Shown piece after piece: positions 1 through 7,052 of a stretch of DNA of 7,052 bases. Below the pieces are notes generated by a model. That model did no database searches. It was not told where the DNA came from and saw nothing but the letters and a program-made list of their open reading frames with translations. The stretch is taken from IMG/VR virus record IMGVR_UViG_2585427745_000012, one strand, 5' to 3'. The DNA comes from a virus (lineage: Duplodnaviria; Heunggongvirae; Uroviricota; Caudoviricetes). How positions within the stretch are numbered: the stretch's first letter is position 1; each line of letters starts with the position of its first letter. The position numbers and the translations under genes are program-made.

Positions 1-495
<495 letters not shown>

Positions 496-581: not shown

Positions 582-764
582 CTACGGAATGAGCGGATCT
601 TCGGGTTTGCTTCCGGCTGACTGACTGGCGCTGATTCTCTCAGCGGCCCTTTTATCAATCTGCCTGCGCCAGAAATCGCGCACTGCCCTGTACCCACCCG
701 AAAGAAGATACATAACACAGACTGCCATACAGAAGTACAGCATTACCTGATGAATAAATGTCAT
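582..764 (-). CDS. Hypothetical small protein (60 aa) with one hydrophobic segment and a basic C-terminal tail
   Basis: ATG at 764-762, stop TAG at 584-582. It has the same orientation as the late operon and lies downstream of the esterase, where small accessory or lysis genes sit in lambdoid phages. The RBS is weak, so it may not be a real gene. Confidence 0.25.
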   Translation of the reverse strand: MTFIHQVMLYFCMAVCVMYLLSGGYRAVRDFWRRQIDKRAAERISASQSAGSKPEDPLIP

Positions 765-900: not shown

Positions 901-2862
901 TCATGCCGCGATGTCCGCGTTGTTCACTTCCACCTTCACACTGTCAATCAGCAGCGTATATGTCGCCGCCTTTGATATGCCTGTCAGTTGCAGTTTGTCC
1001 GCCGCCCCTGATGCCGGAGATTTCACCAGTGTGAACGGCGTCCCCCGTTTCTCATCCAGTACCGGCGTCACCTGAATGCTGTTGTTTCCGGCAAACTCAA
1101 AAGCCAGTGTGTGCCATCCGTTATCAAAGACCCCGAACGTTTCCAGCTTCGCATTCGGCTTCTTGTGGTGCATCGCGTTCAGGTTCGTCGCATCCGTCTG
1201 CAGAAAGAAGGACATCAGCATGTCGTTGCCTTCCTCTGCCAGCGTCACTCCCTCCGGCAGGGACGACAACTGCCAGTAAATGCCCAGGGCAAACTGATTC
1301 GGCACCAGTGAACCCGGCAACTTAAACCGTACGCTCACACGTCCCCCCTTCTTCAGTAACTCCACTCCCTGTCCGGCTGCATCATGCTCCAGAAACCAGA
1401 TGTGGTTTTCCGGTTTATTCAGTTGCAGGGCCTTACCTCCCGTAGCCCCCGCATCACTGACCACCGCTTCAGCAATGTTTTTGTTAACATTGTCTCCGCT
1501 CGCCGGTTTGTGATAATAGCGCCAGCCCTGTGATGCCAGGTCTTCGCCGGACGCCAGCAGACTCATCAGGGTTCGGTTACTGACCGGGGCTTCCGGCTCT
1601 CTCTCCGTACCTTCACCGGAAGGTCCGGTGGGCTTCACCGTATCAGGCTGTTTTCCGGTAATGAATTCAGCGTTTCTCCCGGCATGCACAAGAATCGCCG
1701 TTGCCAGACGGTCGGAAATAATCCCACGACGTGCCCATGATCCAAAATGCGTTTTACGGTCGGCCGTCGTCCAGGTTTTGGCGTCCGTTCGACCACCGCC
1801 TCCGTAATACCCAATATCCGCAACATCCGGATCTTCTGACGGCTCGTTGGTACCCACATTTCGCCCGTTTTCATCCGTCATAAACGGCACAAAGAAGATT
1901 TTTTTTGCGGATTTCGTCTTGTATGCACCATACACCGCATCGTATTGCGAAGAATAAGTCTGCTTCCAGTAGTAGGTCGTGTCGCCACAAATCCAGGGAA
2001 CCGATGACGGAGAGCCCCCGAGACACTGACCTCCGAATTCCGACAGGTCAGAACGATATTTTTCCACCATGGAATCAAACAGCCCCGGCTGAGTGGCGTA
2101 TGCACCCTGTTTCAAATCAAACTCGCCCTGCATCCAGACCACTGCAAGCAGAATATTTTTAGGGTTGGCCTTCAGTGCGGCCTGAGTACGGGTAAGCAGG
2201 TCCTTGTACAGTGGCTTATCAACACCCCAGCGTGCCGAGGTCTCGCTTGCGCCGGTGGATTCGCTGAAGGTACCTTCATCGCCCGCCAAAAATGCAGAAC
2301 CACCACGGCAGCACGGAACCAGAAGAATACCGGCATTCGCCGGAATAAACGGCAACAATTTCTTCGCGATATGTAATCCCTGCCCCACGCATCCATACTG
2401 AGCTGCGCTGGCTTTCGGGTGTGAAAACTTACTCAAATCCTGAACATCATGCAGGCAGTGGTCCGCAGGAATAATGTCATTGTAGTTACAGGACGCACCA
2501 CCCGGCGTGACAGTGCTGCGACGCGCCAGCTGTTTAATACGCGGGTCCGGACGGTCATATGTCTCCGGCAGCGGAAGCCCTTCACCATACGCCATACCGT
2601 TTGACTGCCCGGCCAGGGCAACAACAAAGTAATACTCCGGGTTGCTGGTGGTGCTGATAACTGCGCCTTCTCCATCCGACGGCTTCACCACCACAGGTGT
2701 GGTGACATCACCTTCCGCCGCAATGGCCTGCATCAGGGTATAAGGCGTGATGGCCACCGGACTGCCAAATGGCTGCCACCCCTCCTTCAGTTTTTGTGTC
2801 AGTCGTTTCGCAAGGTCTGACGGCGATGCCGCCCTGACAACATCATAGTGTTTAAATGCCAT
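901..2862 (-). CDS. nanS-p: NanS-p-like prophage sialate (9-O-acetyl-N-acetylneuraminate) O-acetylesterase; N-terminal DUF1737-like region plus SASA/SGNH esterase domain plus C-terminal domain
   Basis: Long uninterrupted minus-strand ORF. The product starts MAFKHYDVVRAASPSDLAKRL, carries the serine-esterase motif ALAGQSNGMAYG, and is about 650 aa, matching the prophage esterases found just downstream of stx in Stx phages. Start chosen at ATG 2862-2860 (SD-like GGTGGAAAG upstream); an in-frame ATG at 2877-2875 has no SD. Stop TGA at 903-901. Confidence 0.75.
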   Translation of the reverse strand: MAFKHYDVVRAASPSDLAKRLTQKLKEGWQPFGSPVAITPYTLMQAIAAEGDVTTPVVVKPSDGEGAVISTTSNPEYYFVVALAGQSNGMAYGEGLPLPETYDRPDPRIKQLARRSTVTPGGASCNYNDIIPADHCLHDVQDLSKFSHPKASAAQYGCVGQGLHIAKKLLPFIPANAGILLVPCCRGGSAFLAGDEGTFSESTGASETSARWGVDKPLYKDLLTRTQAALKANPKNILLAVVWMQGEFDLKQGAYATQPGLFDSMVEKYRSDLSEFGGQCLGGSPSSVPWICGDTTYYWKQTYSSQYDAVYGAYKTKSAKKIFFVPFMTDENGRNVGTNEPSEDPDVADIGYYGGGGRTDAKTWTTADRKTHFGSWARRGIISDRLATAILVHAGRNAEFITGKQPDTVKPTGPSGEGTEREPEAPVSNRTLMSLLASGEDLASQGWRYYHKPASGDNVNKNIAEAVVSDAGATGGKALQLNKPENHIWFLEHDAAGQGVELLKKGGRVSVRFKLPGSLVPNQFALGIYWQLSSLPEGVTLAEEGNDMLMSFFLQTDATNLNAMHHKKPNAKLETFGVFDNGWHTLAFEFAGNNSIQVTPVLDEKRGTPFTLVKSPASGAADKLQLTGISKAATYTLLIDSVKVEVNNADIAA

Positions 2863-3052
2863 GGTTCTTTCCACCATCTGAAAAATAATTCTTTAAAATA
2901 CCTGACATGTAATACAGAAAAAACACAAAACCATACCTTAAATAAAAACCTCATCATCAAGCAGATATGCATGGATAAACTACAAGACGAGATATAAACC
3001 ACCCTGCATTTAAATAAACAATAAACAACATCAGAAAAATAATTCTGCTCTA

Positions 3053-3082
3053 TGGTTTACATTCAAAAATATCATTTATACT
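3053..3082 (+). promoter_or_regulatory. Candidate sigma70 promoter for the 111-aa cargo ORF
   Basis: TTTACA (3056-3061) and TATACT (3077-3082) lie in an AT-rich leader about 40 bp upstream of ATG 3123. The 15-bp spacer is short; the alternative -35 TGGTTT (3053-3058) gives an 18-bp spacer. Sequence-only prediction. Confidence 0.3.
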
Positions 3083-3122
3083 TTTCAGAACATCACCAGC
3101 AAGACATAAACAAGGAAACTAA

Positions 3123-3458
3123 ATGAAGTGGATTGTGATTGATACAGTTATCCAGCCATCATGCGGAATATCTTTTTCAGTCATATGGAGTAAAATAAAA
3201 TTAATAATCTGGTATCAATCGGATGCTTTCTTACCTCCTGAAAGTATATTTACACTGACTCACACAGGTATCATGCTCAATAACAAAGTGCTACCTGTAA
3301 CCATTTACAACGTAGCACCATTCAATAAAACATTCTGGAATTTAATCAAAAACAGCCAGGAATGTCCTACAAATACAGATAACGTATTGAATGAATGCTT
3401 TAATAACCGTTGCACTCTGCAAATATGTCCTTATGGACTAAAACAACAAAGTCCATAA
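3123..3458 (+). CDS. Hypothetical protein, 111 aa, AT-rich moron-like gene, function unknown
   Basis: ATG at 3123 preceded by a good SD (AAGGAAA, 4-5 nt spacer). AT-rich codon usage differs from the flanking phage genes. It is transcribed opposite to the late operon. The C-terminus carries 5 Cys. No family recognised by eye. Confidence 0.45.
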
Positions 3459-3462
3459 GGAG
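3428..3462. repeat. Perfect 12-bp inverted repeat (TCCTTATGGACT / AGTCCATAAGGA) with an 11-nt loop, overlapping the stop codon of the 111-aa ORF
   Basis: Read directly from the sequence. It could form a stable hairpin on either strand. Confidence 0.6.
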
Positions 3463-3475
3463 TTTACTCACATCT

Positions 3476-3514
3476 GACAAAATCAATATAAACAGCCCCT
3501 CCGGAGAGGGGCTG
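3476..3514 (-). terminator. Candidate intrinsic terminator for minus-strand transcription
   Basis: A 9-bp GC-rich stem (3493-3514, CAGCCCCTC/GAGGGGCTG, loop CGGA) is followed on the minus strand by the U-rich tract TGTTTATATTGATTTTG. There is no T-run after it on the plus strand. Confidence 0.45.
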
Positions 3515-3905
3515 GAGAGTGGCGCTATGTGCCATTGCATGGTGCCGGGTGCCTCCCGGTGAATTCAGTACCAGCACCTGAATCCGCGATTATCCCATAT
3601 ACCTACTCGCTGATTGCCCCTCCGCACAGGGGGATTCACCATGCCAGTTTCTTTTAACAAACTCCCCGCAAACCAGACAACAGTCAACCGCCTGAATTGT
3701 GAAGTATTTAAAAATTTCTCCCGCTAACTGATACCCGGCTAACAGTCTGGCGTTTTCTTTTTCAGCAACGGGAAAGCAACAACCACCACACCCGCCACCA
3801 GCACACCGTCAGCCAGCACTGACATTATCCGGCTGCTGCAATGCCACTCACAAAAACAGTAAGCAATCACTTTTTACCGTAACAAGTGATAATCCAGATA
3901 TGTAT

Positions 3906-4259
3906 CTACCCCAGATGAGTAATCCGAAGTTCATCCATACCACAGGTCCTGGCTATTCTGTTGTACTCCTGAACAAGAGCAAATAATTCTGAATTAGCAA
4001 CCATGAACTCATCGCAAACCCTCTGAATAGCATCACTATTCAGAATAATAACGTCTCTTCCCGAAAGACGATCAGGAGTACAGAACAAAACTGTCAAACG
4101 GCTGAAGGCCTTTGCTCGTGCTGCATTGACTATATCAATACGCTGCCTAAGGATGAAACACCCCGACGCCTCATCAATATTCACTCTACCCACACCATAT
4201 GAATGATAAATATTTAATGCTGAAAAAACCATTAGACCGTATAACAAACACTCAATCAA
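3906..4259 (-). CDS. Hypothetical protein (about 108-117 aa), cargo gene in late-operon orientation immediately downstream of the tRNA cluster
   Basis: The ORF opens at TTG 4259-4257; the first in-frame ATG is 4232-4230; stop TAG at 3908-3906. There is no convincing SD for either start. It shares strand and position with stxA in Stx phages but shows no resemblance to Stx. Function unknown. Confidence 0.35.
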   Translation of the reverse strand: MIECLLYGLMVFSALNIYHSYGVGRVNIDEASGCFILRQRIDIVNAARAKAFSRLTVLFCTPDRLSGRDVIILNSDAIQRVCDEFMVANSELFALVQEYNRIARTCGMDELRITHLG

Positions 4260-4372
4260 TACTTAACAGAACTTTTATTTTTGACAAACATATAATATTT
4301 TCAACAATATCCTGAGCCAGGTATATTTCAGTATAAGGCTCTGCCGGAAGGAATCTGGAAGAATGAATATAG

Positions 4373-4446
4373 CGCGCTGTACTGGATTCGAACCAGTGAC
4401 CGATTGCTTAGAAGGCAATTGCTCTGTCCGGCTGAGCTAACAACGC
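4373..4446 (-). tRNA. argO: tRNA-Arg (anticodon UCU), argO-like
   Basis: Manual fold on the minus strand: acceptor GCGTTGT/ACAGCGC, D-arm GCTC-AGCCGGACA-GAGC, anticodon arm ATTGC-CTTCTAA-GCAAT (anticodon TCT), T-arm ACTGG-TTCGAAT-CCAGT. CCA is not encoded. Confidence 0.9.
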
Positions 4447-4459
4447 TGAATACCGATAA

Positions 4460-4539
4460 TGGACCGCCATCGGGGACCCGCCCCCGCACCAACAACCCTG
4501 TTATCGCGTCGTCTGCTCTTCCTGATAAGCTAATGGCGG
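4460..4539 (-). tRNA. tRNA-like element, probably degenerate or non-canonical (argN-position), between the two canonical tRNAs
   Basis: Perfect 7-bp acceptor pairing (CCGCCAT ... ATGGCGG) followed by T-CCA; the D-arm (TAGCTTATCAGGAAGAGC) is similar to that of the neighbouring tRNA-Arg. The anticodon arm and T-loop (GCGGGT) are non-canonical and no clean cloverleaf could be drawn. Confidence 0.3.
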
Positions 4540-4546
4540 TTTGTGA

Positions 4547-4622
4547 TGGTGGCCCTTGCTGGATTTGAACCAGCGACCTGGCGATTATGAGTCGCTCGCT
4601 CTCACCACTGAGCTAAAGGGCC
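4547..4622 (-). tRNA. ileZ: tRNA-Ile2 (anticodon CAU, lysidine type; ileX/ileZ-like)
   Basis: Minus-strand sequence GGCCCTTTAGCTCAGTGGTGAGAGCGAGCGACTCATAATCGCCAGGTCGCTGGTTCAAATCCAGCAAGGGCCACCA folds canonically (acceptor GGCCCTT/AAGGGCC, anticodon loop CTCATAA, T-loop TTCAAAT, encoded CCA). It closely resembles E. coli ileX from memory; an elongator tRNA-Met cannot be fully excluded from sequence alone. Confidence 0.88.
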
Positions 4623-4658
4623 GGGAGCAGAATAATAACGGTCCGTAATTAATTCCGC

Positions 4659-4685
4659 AATAAAAAACCCGCTCGGCGGCGGGTT
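4659..4685 (-). terminator. tR'-like intrinsic terminator of the short pR' transcript
   Basis: On the minus strand, stem AACCCGC / GCGGGTT with loop CGCCGA is followed by TTTTTTATTG, about 65 nt downstream of the predicted pR' start. Confidence 0.6.
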
Positions 4686-4716
4686 GTAGAAACTCTTCTA
4701 ACGTCAGGCATAAAAG

Positions 4717-4760
4717 GCCCATCGTTATGACGAATTTACCACAGATTCCGGAAAAATCAA
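4717..4760 (-). promoter_or_regulatory. Late promoter pR'-like with pause/qut element
   Basis: On the minus strand: -35 TTGATT (4760-4755), 16-nt spacer, -10 TAAATT (4738-4733), then CGTCATAACGATGGG. The TAAATT -10 and the downstream AACGAT element mirror lambda pR' and its sigma-dependent pause signal as I recall them. It lies 6-30 bp downstream of the Q stop. Confidence 0.55.
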
Positions 4761-4765
4761 CCTTG

Positions 4766-5587
4766 TTACCTAGTTACCTTTTTTAACTGCCGCTCAGCCC
4801 ATGCTTCTTCAATATCAAACCGGGTCACCAGCGCATCATAGAATTTCTTAACTGTTTTTTCCCATGACGCGCGTGTTATCTGGTTTGTCACCTCGCATAT
4901 AGCATTAAATGCCTCCGTTGATGGTAGTCTTTCATAGCCACGACCACCACAACGCTGGCAGTCTCTGATAACAGGCATACCACGTTTTACCGACTCTTCA
5001 CGGTGAATGGCGACACCACGCCCACGGCAATCCTTACAGGCGGTGGAAACCTCACCCTTTCCGCCACACTCCGGACAGGCAACTTTTACCACCTCCCTGA
5101 CTTTTTTCCATTCTTCCCAGTAAGACGGATACACACCTTTCGTACACTTTGCCCATACCGGCGGCTTACCATCCGGATACTGGACCTTGTTTGTAAAAAC
5201 TATGCTTTCAATAAATTTTTCCCCATAGCAACAAGGGCACTGCTTTTTACTCGCTGCGCTGCGGGCATAATCCTCAAAAGCGTACGAAGCCATAATGCGC
5301 ATCACTACCGGTTTTATTTCTGCCGGAAGTTTTCTCAACGCCGCCACACGATCGCACCGACTGAGTGCATAATCTGCCAGTAATTCTGTTGCCCGCACCC
5401 TGTCATTCATACTGATGCCCATTTTCCCCAGGAACGCAGAAAAACCCATCTCAGCCCGATTCTGTGTCATGCCCTGCGCGGCCATCACATCAGTGATACT
5501 CAGCGCATCTTTTGACGTTGAGGCCGATGCATCGGTCAGGCCAGGGGATTTTGGGGAGTAGTATTTCGGTAAATCTTCCAGTTTCAT
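4766..5587 (-). CDS. Q: Late-gene antitermination protein Q (lambda-type Q family) with an enlarged zinc-finger region
   Basis: 273-aa product. Blocks YSPKSPGLTD, TDVMAAQGMTQNRAEMGFSAFLGK, ASYAFEDYARSAA, CQRCGGRGYERLP and the C-terminus WEKTVKKFYDALV...KVTR align with lambda Q as recalled. Its position (after rusA, before pR' and the tRNAs) is canonical. The start ATG overlaps the rusA stop (ATGA). Confidence 0.8.
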   Translation of the reverse strand: MKLEDLPKYYSPKSPGLTDASASTSKDALSITDVMAAQGMTQNRAEMGFSAFLGKMGISMNDRVRATELLADYALSRCDRVAALRKLPAEIKPVVMRIMASYAFEDYARSAASKKQCPCCYGEKFIESIVFTNKVQYPDGKPPVWAKCTKGVYPSYWEEWKKVREVVKVACPECGGKGEVSTACKDCRGRGVAIHREESVKRGMPVIRDCQRCGGRGYERLPSTEAFNAICEVTNQITRASWEKTVKKFYDALVTRFDIEEAWAERQLKKVTR

Positions 5588-5958
5588 TTTTTGACCTGCT
5601 CTTCATGCATTATGGGGTAAATCTTCACCCCCAGACGTCCACCAGATACTGGCTGACCACGAACGATATTGATTTCATCAAACTGCTCATCGTCCATTAA
5701 CACTCCCGCATGCGTCAGCGCATCCAGCGGTGCTTTCAGGATATTGTCCAGGTCGCGACGACGCTTATCCGGTGGCTCTGCAATCACCTTTATCGCCAGC
5801 CTTCCGGACAGGCTTAATTTCAGCCGCTGCTGGCGAACAATAAGCGCCACAGCCCGGCGATAACGCTTTCCCTCCTCCGAGATAAAATATGTGCTGCCAC
5901 GGCGTCGCCAGTAAGTGTTCACCGTCGGCGGGTAAGGTAAAACCAAATCTATGAGCAT
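5584..5958 (-). CDS. rusA: RusA-family Holliday junction resolvase (crossover junction endodeoxyribonuclease)
   Basis: 124 aa. The N-terminus LPYPPTVNTYWRRRG...SEEGKRYR and the PDKRRRDLDNILKAPLDALTHAGVLMDDEQ block carrying the catalytic acidic residues resemble E. coli RusA. Good SD (AGAGGTGA) before ATG 5958. Confidence 0.85.
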   Translation of the reverse strand: MLIDLVLPYPPTVNTYWRRRGSTYFISEEGKRYRRAVALIVRQQRLKLSLSGRLAIKVIAEPPDKRRRDLDNILKAPLDALTHAGVLMDDEQFDEINIVRGQPVSGGRLGVKIYPIMHEEQVKK

Positions 5959-5970
5959 CAGTCACCTCTT

Positions 5971-7052
5971 TTACCCAAGCACGCCAGTTGCAAAGGCGTG
6001 ATCAAGAAAACGAAAAATTAAATCAACCTGAGAACCATGCTTTTCTTCGAACGCCAGAGGATCCGCATGAAGCTCGTTGTGATGCTCCCGACACAGCGGT
6101 AGCGTGAAAATATCGTGAGATTTTGTCCCCATTCCGCCCTGACCATGACCAATCAGGTGATGGGGATCGTCGGCTGGCTTACCACAACACGCACACGGCT
6201 GTGTCTTCACCCAGCGTGTGTATTTCTCGTTAACCCAGCGGCGACGTTTAGGTCGTTTCATGAAAGATTCCGGAGACTCAGGATCAACGGCAATGCTGAC
6301 CACCGTCTCTTCCTGTGGCGGGTTTTGCTGGTGGGCGTGAGGCAGCGGCGCAAGATTTTTTGTGCGCTGCTTCAGTATGCTGGTGGCGGTCTGCTCTCCC
6401 GGTACGATGTCGCTTTCACGGTACATTGAGCGGATTTTTTCCGCACGCAACCCCAGCGAACGACGTAATACCGCTTCCGGTAGCGCGTCCGCCACCTGAT
6501 TGCGGACCGCCCACCAGGATAATTCAGCCAGCGATAATTCCCGTTCCTGCGAGCCATTCATTGCATGGCGTATGACGTCAATCATCCATGCAGACAGGTT
6601 TTGGTGAGCAAGTTGCCCGAGTGATTCGGAGGTCTGGTCGCGCAGCTGGTTGTCGCAGTGCCAGCACAACACCATTGCGCCGGTACCATAACGGTGAATG
6701 ACGGTTTCACTGTGGTGATAATCGCCGTGTTGCCACTGGCAGGATTTAACATGGCGCAGTAACCAGTCAGACAATGCGCCAGCGCCACCAGCAGCACGAA
6801 TCACTCGTTCGTCGCTGAAAAATGGCAGTAATGATTTATCCTCCGCCAGCGGCTGGCGAACGGCAGGAACGACCCCGGACGGCAGATTACGCATGCTTTT
6901 CGGTTCCGGCTCCACCAGTACCCGGGTATTGTGGAATACCGGCATGGATTCACGGCCCGGCTTAACGATCACCAGCCCGAGTTCCGGTACCAGAACAGGT
7001 CGAAGTAATACCCGCACGTTACCTCCAGATGCGTTGCTGGAATGTGCGGGAC
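5971..7052 (-). CDS. Lambdoid prophage DUF968-like protein with C-terminal HNH-type Cys/His motif (YdfU-like); 5' end beyond the window
   Basis: The frame is open to the window edge with no stop upstream of the reported GTG at 7017. The C-terminal region CACCGKPADDPHHLIGHGQGG...CREHHNELH is HNH-like. It sits immediately upstream of rusA as in other lambdoid prophages. Stop TAA at 5973-5971. Family assignment is from memory. Confidence 0.6.
   Translation of the reverse strand, partial: PAHSSNASGGNVRVLLRPVLVPELGLVIVKPGRESMPVFHNTRVLVEPEPKSMRNLPSGVVPAVRQPLAEDKSLLPFFSDERVIRAAGGAGALSDWLLRHVKSCQWQHGDYHHSETVIHRYGTGAMVLCWHCDNQLRDQTSESLGQLAHQNLSAWMIDVIRHAMNGSQERELSLAELSWWAVRNQVADALPEAVLRRSLGLRAEKIRSMYRESDIVPGEQTATSILKQRTKNLAPLPHAHQQNPPQEETVVSIAVDPESPESFMKRPKRRRWVNEKYTRWVKTQPCACCGKPADDPHHLIGHGQGGMGTKSHDIFTLPLCREHHNELHADPLAFEEKHGSQVDLIFRFLDHAFATGVLG

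Follow-up and report, generated by a model that had tools for sequence, protein, structure and literature searches.

A probable 92-codon late-region moron at the stx2AB position of an Escherichia coli lambdoid prophage

In Shiga toxin (Stx) phages the slot between the Q-linked tRNA genes and nanS-p is the toxin site, and expression from this slot is tied to prophage induction. In the Stx2a phage Stx2_EH1846, a DNA methylase gene is followed by tRNA-Met(CAT), two tRNA-Arg genes, stx2A, stx2B, STnc100, iraM on the opposite strand, and yjhS/nanS-p. STnc100 follows stx2B by about 75 nt in this phage, and in several Stx2a phages the annotation places iraM right behind stx2B. Two other described systems bear on the locus analysed here. 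The first are the morons, whose classic definition includes a promoter and a terminator of their own; in lambdoid phages, late-region morons are extra genes of lower GC content that lie in late-operon orientation in the cargo hot-spot between Q and the lysis genes. The second is the tciA-tciB-tciC region of phage P1, which contains TerB-like and TciB-like genes and lies among tRNA genes next to a DNA methyltransferase gene.

The stretch of DNA under study has 7,052 nt in total (hereafter the window). Along its minus strand it presents the late-regulatory genes and signals of a lambdoid prophage of E. coli. A phage-genome search with window positions 2700-5600 returned many Stx-converting phages. 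On this strand the ORF list contains an open frame of 117 codons, from TTG 4259 to the stop at 3906-3908, in the same orientation as the tRNA-Ile2/Met(CAT), Q, RusA, and DUF968 genes. The tRNA-Arg(UCU) gene ends 112 nt upstream of it. The frame at 3906-4259 is thus present, downstream of tRNA-Arg and in late-operon orientation, as first described. We use the name ORF92 for its conserved core of 92 codons, which extends from GTG 4184 to the stop at 3906. In the direction of late transcription, the features of the window are the following.

7017-5971, minus strand: DUF968 gene
5958-5584, minus strand: RusA gene
4766-5587, minus strand: Q antiterminator gene (Pfam PF03589, E = 2.2e-54)
4721-4760, minus strand: pR'-like late promoter, with -35 TTGATT at 4755-4760, -10 TAAATT at 4733-4738, 16 nt between them, and a AACGATGGG pause-inducing element from 4726
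4660-4685, minus strand: tR'-like intrinsic terminator (terminator scan), stem at 4666-4685 followed by a T run
4547-4622, minus strand: tRNA gene with CAT anticodon (ARAGORN), annotated as tRNA-Ile in RefSeq (PGAP) in a genome identical to the window over 3700-4400
4372-4446, minus strand: tRNA-Arg(UCU) gene (ARAGORN, Rfam tRNA), immediately upstream of the cassette
3703-4361, minus strand: cargo cassette of 659 bp with ORF92 and a truncated DUF3927 gene, delimited by blastn of the window against Stx2_EH1846
4231-4259, minus strand: putative weak sigma-70 promoter, TTGATT-17 nt-TCTAAT, read off the sequence and speculative
4185-4259, minus strand: upstream extension of 25 codons (TTG 4259, ATG 4232), most likely a non-coding 5' leader
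4188-4193, minus strand: Shine-Dalgarno (SD)-like GUGGGU, 3 nt ahead of the GTG start
3906-4184, minus strand: ORF92 coding sequence, 92 codons and stop, GTG start at 4184-4182, the probable real gene within the 117-codon frame
3739-3870, minus strand: DUF3927/TciB-like ORF, 43 aa, N-terminally truncated (PGAP name DUF3927 family protein; PHROG 1470)
3484-3673, minus strand: STnc100 sRNA gene (Rfam RF02076, 132 bits against a gathering score of 47)
3493-3514, minus strand: intrinsic terminator of STnc100 (terminator scan)
3123-3458, plus strand: iraM homolog, convergent with the late operon (NCBIfam NF007393, 162 bits; PGAP)
901-2877, minus strand: NanS-p-type sialate O-acetylesterase gene (Pfam DUF1737, SASA, DUF6645)
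582-764, minus strand: DUF1378 gene
7-453, plus strand: C-terminal fragment of an IS3-family transposase (rve domains)

The preliminary description had placed the frame in the position of stx, and the alignment of the flanks around stx2AB of Stx2_EH1846 bears this out to within a few bases. In blastn comparisons, window 4362-4662 corresponds to the tRNA genes of this phage and window 1675-3702 to its STnc100, iraM, and nanS-p. Homology stops at window position 4362 and resumes at 3702, and in Stx2_EH1846 stx2A and stx2B are found between these points. The 659 bp at 3703-4361 stand where the 1.37-kb stx2AB cassette stands in the phage, with tRNA-Ile2/Arg upstream and STnc100, iraM, and nanS-p downstream of either cargo. 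As stx2AB and ORF92 also have the same orientation, transcription of both presumably depends on pR' and Q. Beyond the slot the two cargoes differ: Stx is an AB5 toxin, ORF92 specifies a single small protein predicted to be soluble and helical, and no relation in sequence, domain, or fold links it to StxA or StxB. Neither an N-glycosidase domain of the RIP type, nor an OB-fold B subunit, nor a signal peptide was found in ORF92, whose predicted fold is a two-helix hairpin.

Several observations concern the surroundings of the slot. The spacer of 100 nt between the two tRNA genes (4447-4546) contains no tRNA gene in the window, but a third tRNA gene (tRNA-Arg; anticodon TCG in related loci) occupies it in the genome identical over 3700-4400 and in Stx2a phages; the tRNA array is therefore variable. 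The iraM homolog, which lies between the cargo slot and nanS-p, codes for an anti-adaptor that stabilises RpoS. For nanS-p, the longest ORF begins at ATG 2877 without an SD (-0.9 kcal/mol), while ATG 2862 has a better one (-4.9 kcal/mol) and agrees with the length of the PGAP-annotated CDS in the same identical genome, 1962 nt. At the distal end of the window the IS3 fragment (window 1-480) abuts the late operon just past DUF1378. Since related prophages continue at this point with DUF826, holin, and lysozyme, the late operon of this copy may be interrupted and the prophage defective.

Comparison with diverged copies argues that ORF92 encodes a protein. From 126 genomes with copies at 60-80% nucleotide identity, three E. 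coli loci (L002, L003, and L004) were picked. All three contain a 92-codon ORF on the same strand, with a GTG homologous to 4184 and a homologous stop, and in two of them PGAP annotates a 92-aa hypothetical protein. Over the 279 nt of ORF92 the alignment of three E. coli lineages has not a single indel at a DNA divergence of ~28% (about 70-76% identity). The differences cluster at third codon positions (e.g., 19/19/40), and dN/dS between the lineages, calculated according to Nei and Gojobori, is 0.21-0.32 in the frame of ORF92. Shifted frames give dN/dS values of ~1, and the antisense frame with the same wobble position contains stops in the window and in L002. Conservation of the reading frame at homologous loci, proposed at the outset as a check, is thus borne out. 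Among close copies in IMG/VR, ORF92 is intact with its GTG kept in 77 of 77, and the core polymorphisms of this set comprise five non-synonymous and five synonymous changes in 279 nt. Because of the indel-free alignment, the confinement of low dN/dS to one frame, the intact close copies, and the existence of collinear distant relatives, ORF92 is, as far as comparative sequence data can tell, protein-coding and not spurious.

A chance frame in an AT-rich spacer, which the preliminary description had considered possible, or a sequence conserved for what it does as RNA or as DNA, would agree with the missing PGAP annotation in the window clade, with the lack of a Pfam domain (a search of ORF92 gave nothing except a sub-threshold RHIM match, E = 0.09), and with the virtual absence of an SD at the starts that were first proposed. 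Such a sequence would, however, hardly show purifying selection in the ORF92 frame alone, nor would it have protein relatives that match in length and at both ends down to 22% identity, and the Rfam search over 3906-4259 found no match. By the frame-specific dN/dS and the indel-free alignment, this explanation appears effectively refuted already and is barely tenable.

A related question is where the gene begins. In L002, L003, and L004 the ORF starts at the GTG homologous to 4184. Upstream of it, L003 and L004 have an in-frame stop in the region of the extension, and L002 carries a 7-nt indel there. Within the close clade, the polymorphisms of the extension (five non-synonymous and one synonymous in 75 nt) occur at roughly twice the density of those in the core and look non-coding. 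The predicted duplex with the 3' end of 16S rRNA is most stable at GTG 4184 (-4.5 kcal/mol), weaker at ATG 4232 (-2.4 kcal/mol), and weakest at TTG 4259 (-0.9 kcal/mol); in L003 and L004, AGGAG replaces GUGGGU and gives -6.9 kcal/mol. The distant relatives, too, begin at the GTG position. A longer product of 117 aa (from TTG 4259) or 108 aa (from ATG 4232), whose hydrophobic N-terminus MIECLLYGLMVFSAL... would serve as a membrane anchor, has some points in its favor: the extension is open throughout the close copies, it is also open and somewhat similar in P0014, one variant of the L002 type, and the profile of PHROG 2873 as well as many gene callers and database entries start at ATG 4232 with the 108-aa form. 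A point against the main reading is that the SD of the window copy is only moderate and lies just 3 nt from the GTG. The interrupted or frameshifted extensions of L002, L003, and L004, the non-coding pattern of polymorphism, the lack of an SD at the long-form starts, and the starts of the distant relatives nevertheless make the longer product very improbable. The members of PHROG 2873 are prophage proteins of about the size of ORF92, but the profile start at ATG 4232 is not supported by the comparative data obtained here. As the extension is not conserved as coding sequence and the SD is stronger at the GTG, the gene should probably be annotated as 4184-3906 (92 aa), and the 108-aa form is probably too long. 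The starts named in the preliminary description, TTG or an ATG without SD, would then fall in a 5' leader, and the conserved GTG 4184 has the moderate SD that they lack.

ORF92 DNA occurs in 1312 of 5426 complete E. coli genomes. A single match covers at least 80% of the 411-bp query in 1184 of these 1312, and the best match reaches at least 95% identity in about 1185 E. coli genomes. Among the listed genomes with an identity of at least 98%, no RefSeq/PGAP annotation lies under the match; RefSeq thus leaves the ORF, described at first as unrecognised, without annotation in the window clade. The protein belongs to PHROG 2873 according to a full-length HMM match (E = 5.6e-58 for the 92-aa form, residues 1-92 against positions 17-108 of the 108-position profile; E = 3.8e-70 for the 117-aa form), which the L002 and L003 proteins match at about 1e-46. 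PHROG 4827 is matched weakly by ORF92 (E about 2e-5 to 5e-8), and to our knowledge neither family has a known function. The earlier remark that the ORF has no recognisable motifs therefore holds for Pfam motifs, but not at the family level, given the match to PHROG 2873 and the annotation of diverged copies as a hypothetical protein of 92 aa.

The family appears to be narrow. An exhaustive HMM search of 1.84 billion representative proteins produced only 22 matches, all of them small hypothetical proteins with the exception of one repetitive 696-aa protein that we regard as spurious. The relatives have 91-106 aa and 22-41% identity, stem from Citrobacter, Providencia, and E. coli plasmids, and are collinear from start to stop. 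In a tblastn search against 50,697 phage genomes the gene was found only in mEp460_ev081, where the annotated ORF is a small antisense one. A locus search with a profile from a narrower alignment recovered only three species-level genome loci, and scans of IMG/VR with the distant relatives P0035, P0032, and P0038 gave no match. Outside Enterobacterales prophages, where they frequently precede TerB-TciB, relatives turned up only on a small number of IncF plasmids. At about 125 loci the gene is invariably located between the Q/DNA methyltransferase/tRNA block and the holin gene, in late-operon orientation. The immediate neighbours distinguish several arrangements.

Window clade: tRNA-Arg upstream; truncated TciB and then STnc100 downstream
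L004 type: TerB, TciB, and then holin downstream of ORF92
Citrobacter braakii (L008, L121, L122): TerB, TciB, and then holin downstream
L003 type: DUF1883 on the opposite strand and then holin as neighbours
L002 type: YdeO/GadX-like AraC regulator upstream; several STnc100 copies downstream

In L002, the gene of the AraC-family regulator (5323-6048, minus strand) is closest to those of the acid-resistance regulators YdeO and GadX and lies 90 nt upstream of ORF92. The same locus contains four tandem STnc100 copies (3687-4666) and a fifth one upstream (6425-6637); Stx2_EH1846 has its copy at 3198-3413. STnc100 may serve as a common 3' end with terminator for any cargo in the slot. On IncF plasmids of animal E. 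coli, a relative of 91 aa with about 34% identity (5001-5276 in both L089 and L090) is isolated, AT-rich, and flanked by IS elements beside fimbrial operons. A tRNA-like sequence (4344-4415) about 590 nt upstream of the relative on the L090 plasmid suggests that the plasmid copy derives from a captured prophage fragment. The weakest member of the family, from Providencia (L123 and L124, 5001-5294; E = 3e-5 to the profile), lies between tail-completion and major-tail/tail-tube genes. Provided that this protein is truly homologous, the family would represent a free-standing moron able to enter more than one phage module. The contigs of the distant relatives offer no consistent context (a head-tail module in Providencia, a metagenome contig with a GerE regulator), and the hints from synteny conflict with each other, with TerB-TciB following in three lineages, an AraC-like gene preceding in another, and head-tail genes surrounding the Providencia copy. 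Literature searches for tciA/tciB, DUF3927, and iraM together with stx2 yielded nothing on ORF92.

The frequent company of TerB and TciB raises the possibility that ORF92 is the first gene of an ORF92-TerB(TciA)-DUF3927(TciB) module that acts at the envelope shortly ahead of lysis (conceivable tasks being superinfection exclusion, resistance to colicins or phages, and control of membrane stress), and of which the window would retain a decayed version with ORF92 as the only gene kept. The order ORF92, TerB, TciB, holin is found in E. coli loci of the L004 type, in C. braakii, and in L007, and TciB directly follows ORF92 throughout the window clade. Comparison of the TciB-like ORF of the window with the full-length TciB of L004 and P1 revealed that it matches only positions 23-51 of the 54 in the TciB profile (PHROG 1470) and has lost the first hydrophobic segment. 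Relatives have a TerB-like gene ahead of TciB. The window lacks this gene, and only 35 nt separate ORF92 from the TciB remnant there; this suggests that a deletion brought the two almost directly together. Yet ORF92 has remained intact in all 77 close copies in spite of the loss of TerB and the truncation of TciB, and it is therefore maintained or selected independently of both. Loci of the L003 and L002 types lack both partner genes, the gap between ORF92 and TerB is about 180-200 nt where TerB is present, the plasmid copies of the relative stand alone, and P1 possesses tciABC without a relative of ORF92 in the inspected tci region. ORF92 itself contains no TerB domain (PF05099) and no DUF3927, which are separate neighbouring genes in the relatives. 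A functional tie between ORF92 and TerB-TciB is possible, although weakened by the losses in the window clade, and a dedicated three-gene module is an unlikely explanation of the locus.

We now turn to the expression of ORF92. The pR'/tR' block directly follows Q and, without Q, is predicted to yield a short, terminated leader RNA of about 65 nt. An alignment with lambda 44504-44629 has the common block GGTAAATT..AACGATGGG, in which the roles of the -35, the -10, and the pause element are those we take over from established knowledge of lambda pR'. ORF92 lies downstream of pR'/tR' in the same orientation. A terminator scan from tR' to ORF92 predicted no further terminator, apart from a weak hairpin inside the coding sequence, and the first predicted terminator downstream is the one of STnc100. 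Since ORF92 has the late orientation, lies behind pR'/tR', and is not separated from them by a predicted terminator, its Q-dependent co-transcription is plausible and a reasonable reading of the sequence. ORF92 would then be transcribed mainly by Q-antiterminated read-through after induction, as is the case for stx2, perhaps with low-level transcription from the tRNA region or from a weak promoter of its own, and would be translated from the GTG with its modest SD.

Were the weak promoter the decisive one, ORF92 could instead be a lysogenic-conversion regulator, expressed in the uninduced lysogen and modulating the host together with IraM, the AraC/YdeO-like regulator, and STnc100. The candidate TTGATT-17-TCTAAT promoter at 4231-4259 and the host-physiology regulators among the neighbours of ORF92 would fit this role, as would the plasmid relative, which is free-standing, AT-rich, and IS-flanked and must rely on a promoter of its own. 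However, the promoter proposed at 4231-4259 is weak; it is partly conserved in L002, absent from L003 and L004, and not reported by the consensus scan, and ORF92 displays neither a DNA-binding motif nor a match to families of regulators. A regulatory role of this kind is thus quite improbable, even more so than the three-gene module. Candidates of a similar nature, namely an H-NS/H-NST-like or PerC/Pch-like regulator, a Rop-like RNA-binding protein, and a protein like lambda Gam, were rejected as no match was detectable.

The predicted ORF92 protein has about 10.4 kDa, a pI of 5.7, and a GRAVY of 0.13, and any hydrophobic segments in it are too short to cross a membrane. AlphaFold2, run with a shallow alignment, produced a model with a mean pLDDT of 80.8, in which two helices (3-35 and 50-81) are joined by a conserved loop with the motif TPDR and the C-terminal tail is of low confidence. 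Within the family R23, Y74, and N75 are invariant, and P37, N64, and A78 nearly so. According to the model, the product would be a soluble, mildly acidic α-helical hairpin without signal peptide, membrane segment, or enzymatic motif. Searches for a function-bearing homolog were negative within their scope. Pfam, NCBIfam, and PADLOC returned nothing meaningful when queried with the window protein, with its relatives, and with 11 members of the family, and PADLOC specifically had no match at E <= 1 for the window, L002, and L003 proteins. The sequence-profile search of the PDB gave an incoherent set of matches with E values of at least 0.038 (Rop: E = 0.59), and Foldseek with the AlphaFold2 model found only generic helical hairpins, with E values of at least 0.14 in the PDB and at least 0.19 in BFVD. 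Among helical-hairpin proteins of solved structure, such as Rop, the tips of MCPs, and flagellin D0/D1, none matched ORF92 significantly.

With low confidence, ORF92 may be considered neither an enzyme, nor a secreted toxin, nor a membrane protein. Tentatively, it could act stoichiometrically by binding to another protein, probably as an oligomeric helical bundle, and would in that case be a modulator of exclusion, anti-defence, or host physiology rather than a toxin or an enzyme. Since the helical hairpin is too generic a fold (all Foldseek E values at least 0.14), this putative mechanism is reached by exclusion of alternatives, which counts against it. A more specific proposal is that ORF92 is an induction-coupled effector with a new activity, made in bulk from the Q-antiterminated transcript in the stx slot, for instance as a helical-hairpin inhibitor of a host defence or stress system or as a modulator of lysis or exclusion. 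This is more doubtful than protein binding as such.

Taken together, the 117-codon frame in all likelihood holds a genuine gene of 92 aa that belongs to a narrow family of Enterobacterales prophages, PHROG 2873, and represents a late-region moron in the stx2AB slot that is unrelated to Shiga toxin. The cassette at 3703-4361 has a GC content of 41%, lower than that of Q (0.49), nanS-p (0.55), and the window as a whole (50%), and it is absent from Stx2_EH1846 and vB_EcoS-640R1, which share the flanks. Like other lambdoid late-region morons, ORF92 is an extra gene that is missing from otherwise homologous phages at the locus, differs in base composition from its neighbours, and occupies the cargo hot-spot between Q and the lysis genes in late-operon orientation. 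In contrast to the classic moron, it has only a weak, non-conserved candidate promoter, and the nearest terminator is that of STnc100. ORF92 is therefore best described as an ordinary late-region moron, a further member of a familiar class and nothing categorically new. It is also catalogued already, as a hypothetical protein and as a PHROG family, with consequences for annotation: RefSeq omits the copy of the window clade, and other databases start the gene too early.

The interest of ORF92 lies in its exact positional equivalence with stx2AB and in its wide spread. Given its presence in so many complete E. coli genomes, a selectively maintained and unannotated 92-aa gene fills the cargo position of the late region in numerous strains, commensal as well as pathogenic, and it offers an inexpensive candidate for an accessory function expressed late. 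If ORF92 were indeed an effector made upon induction, the stx slot would be a general exchange site for late-expressed cargo, and ORF92, with or without TerB-TciB, would be a widespread alternative occupant of this slot in roughly a quarter of the complete E. coli genomes.
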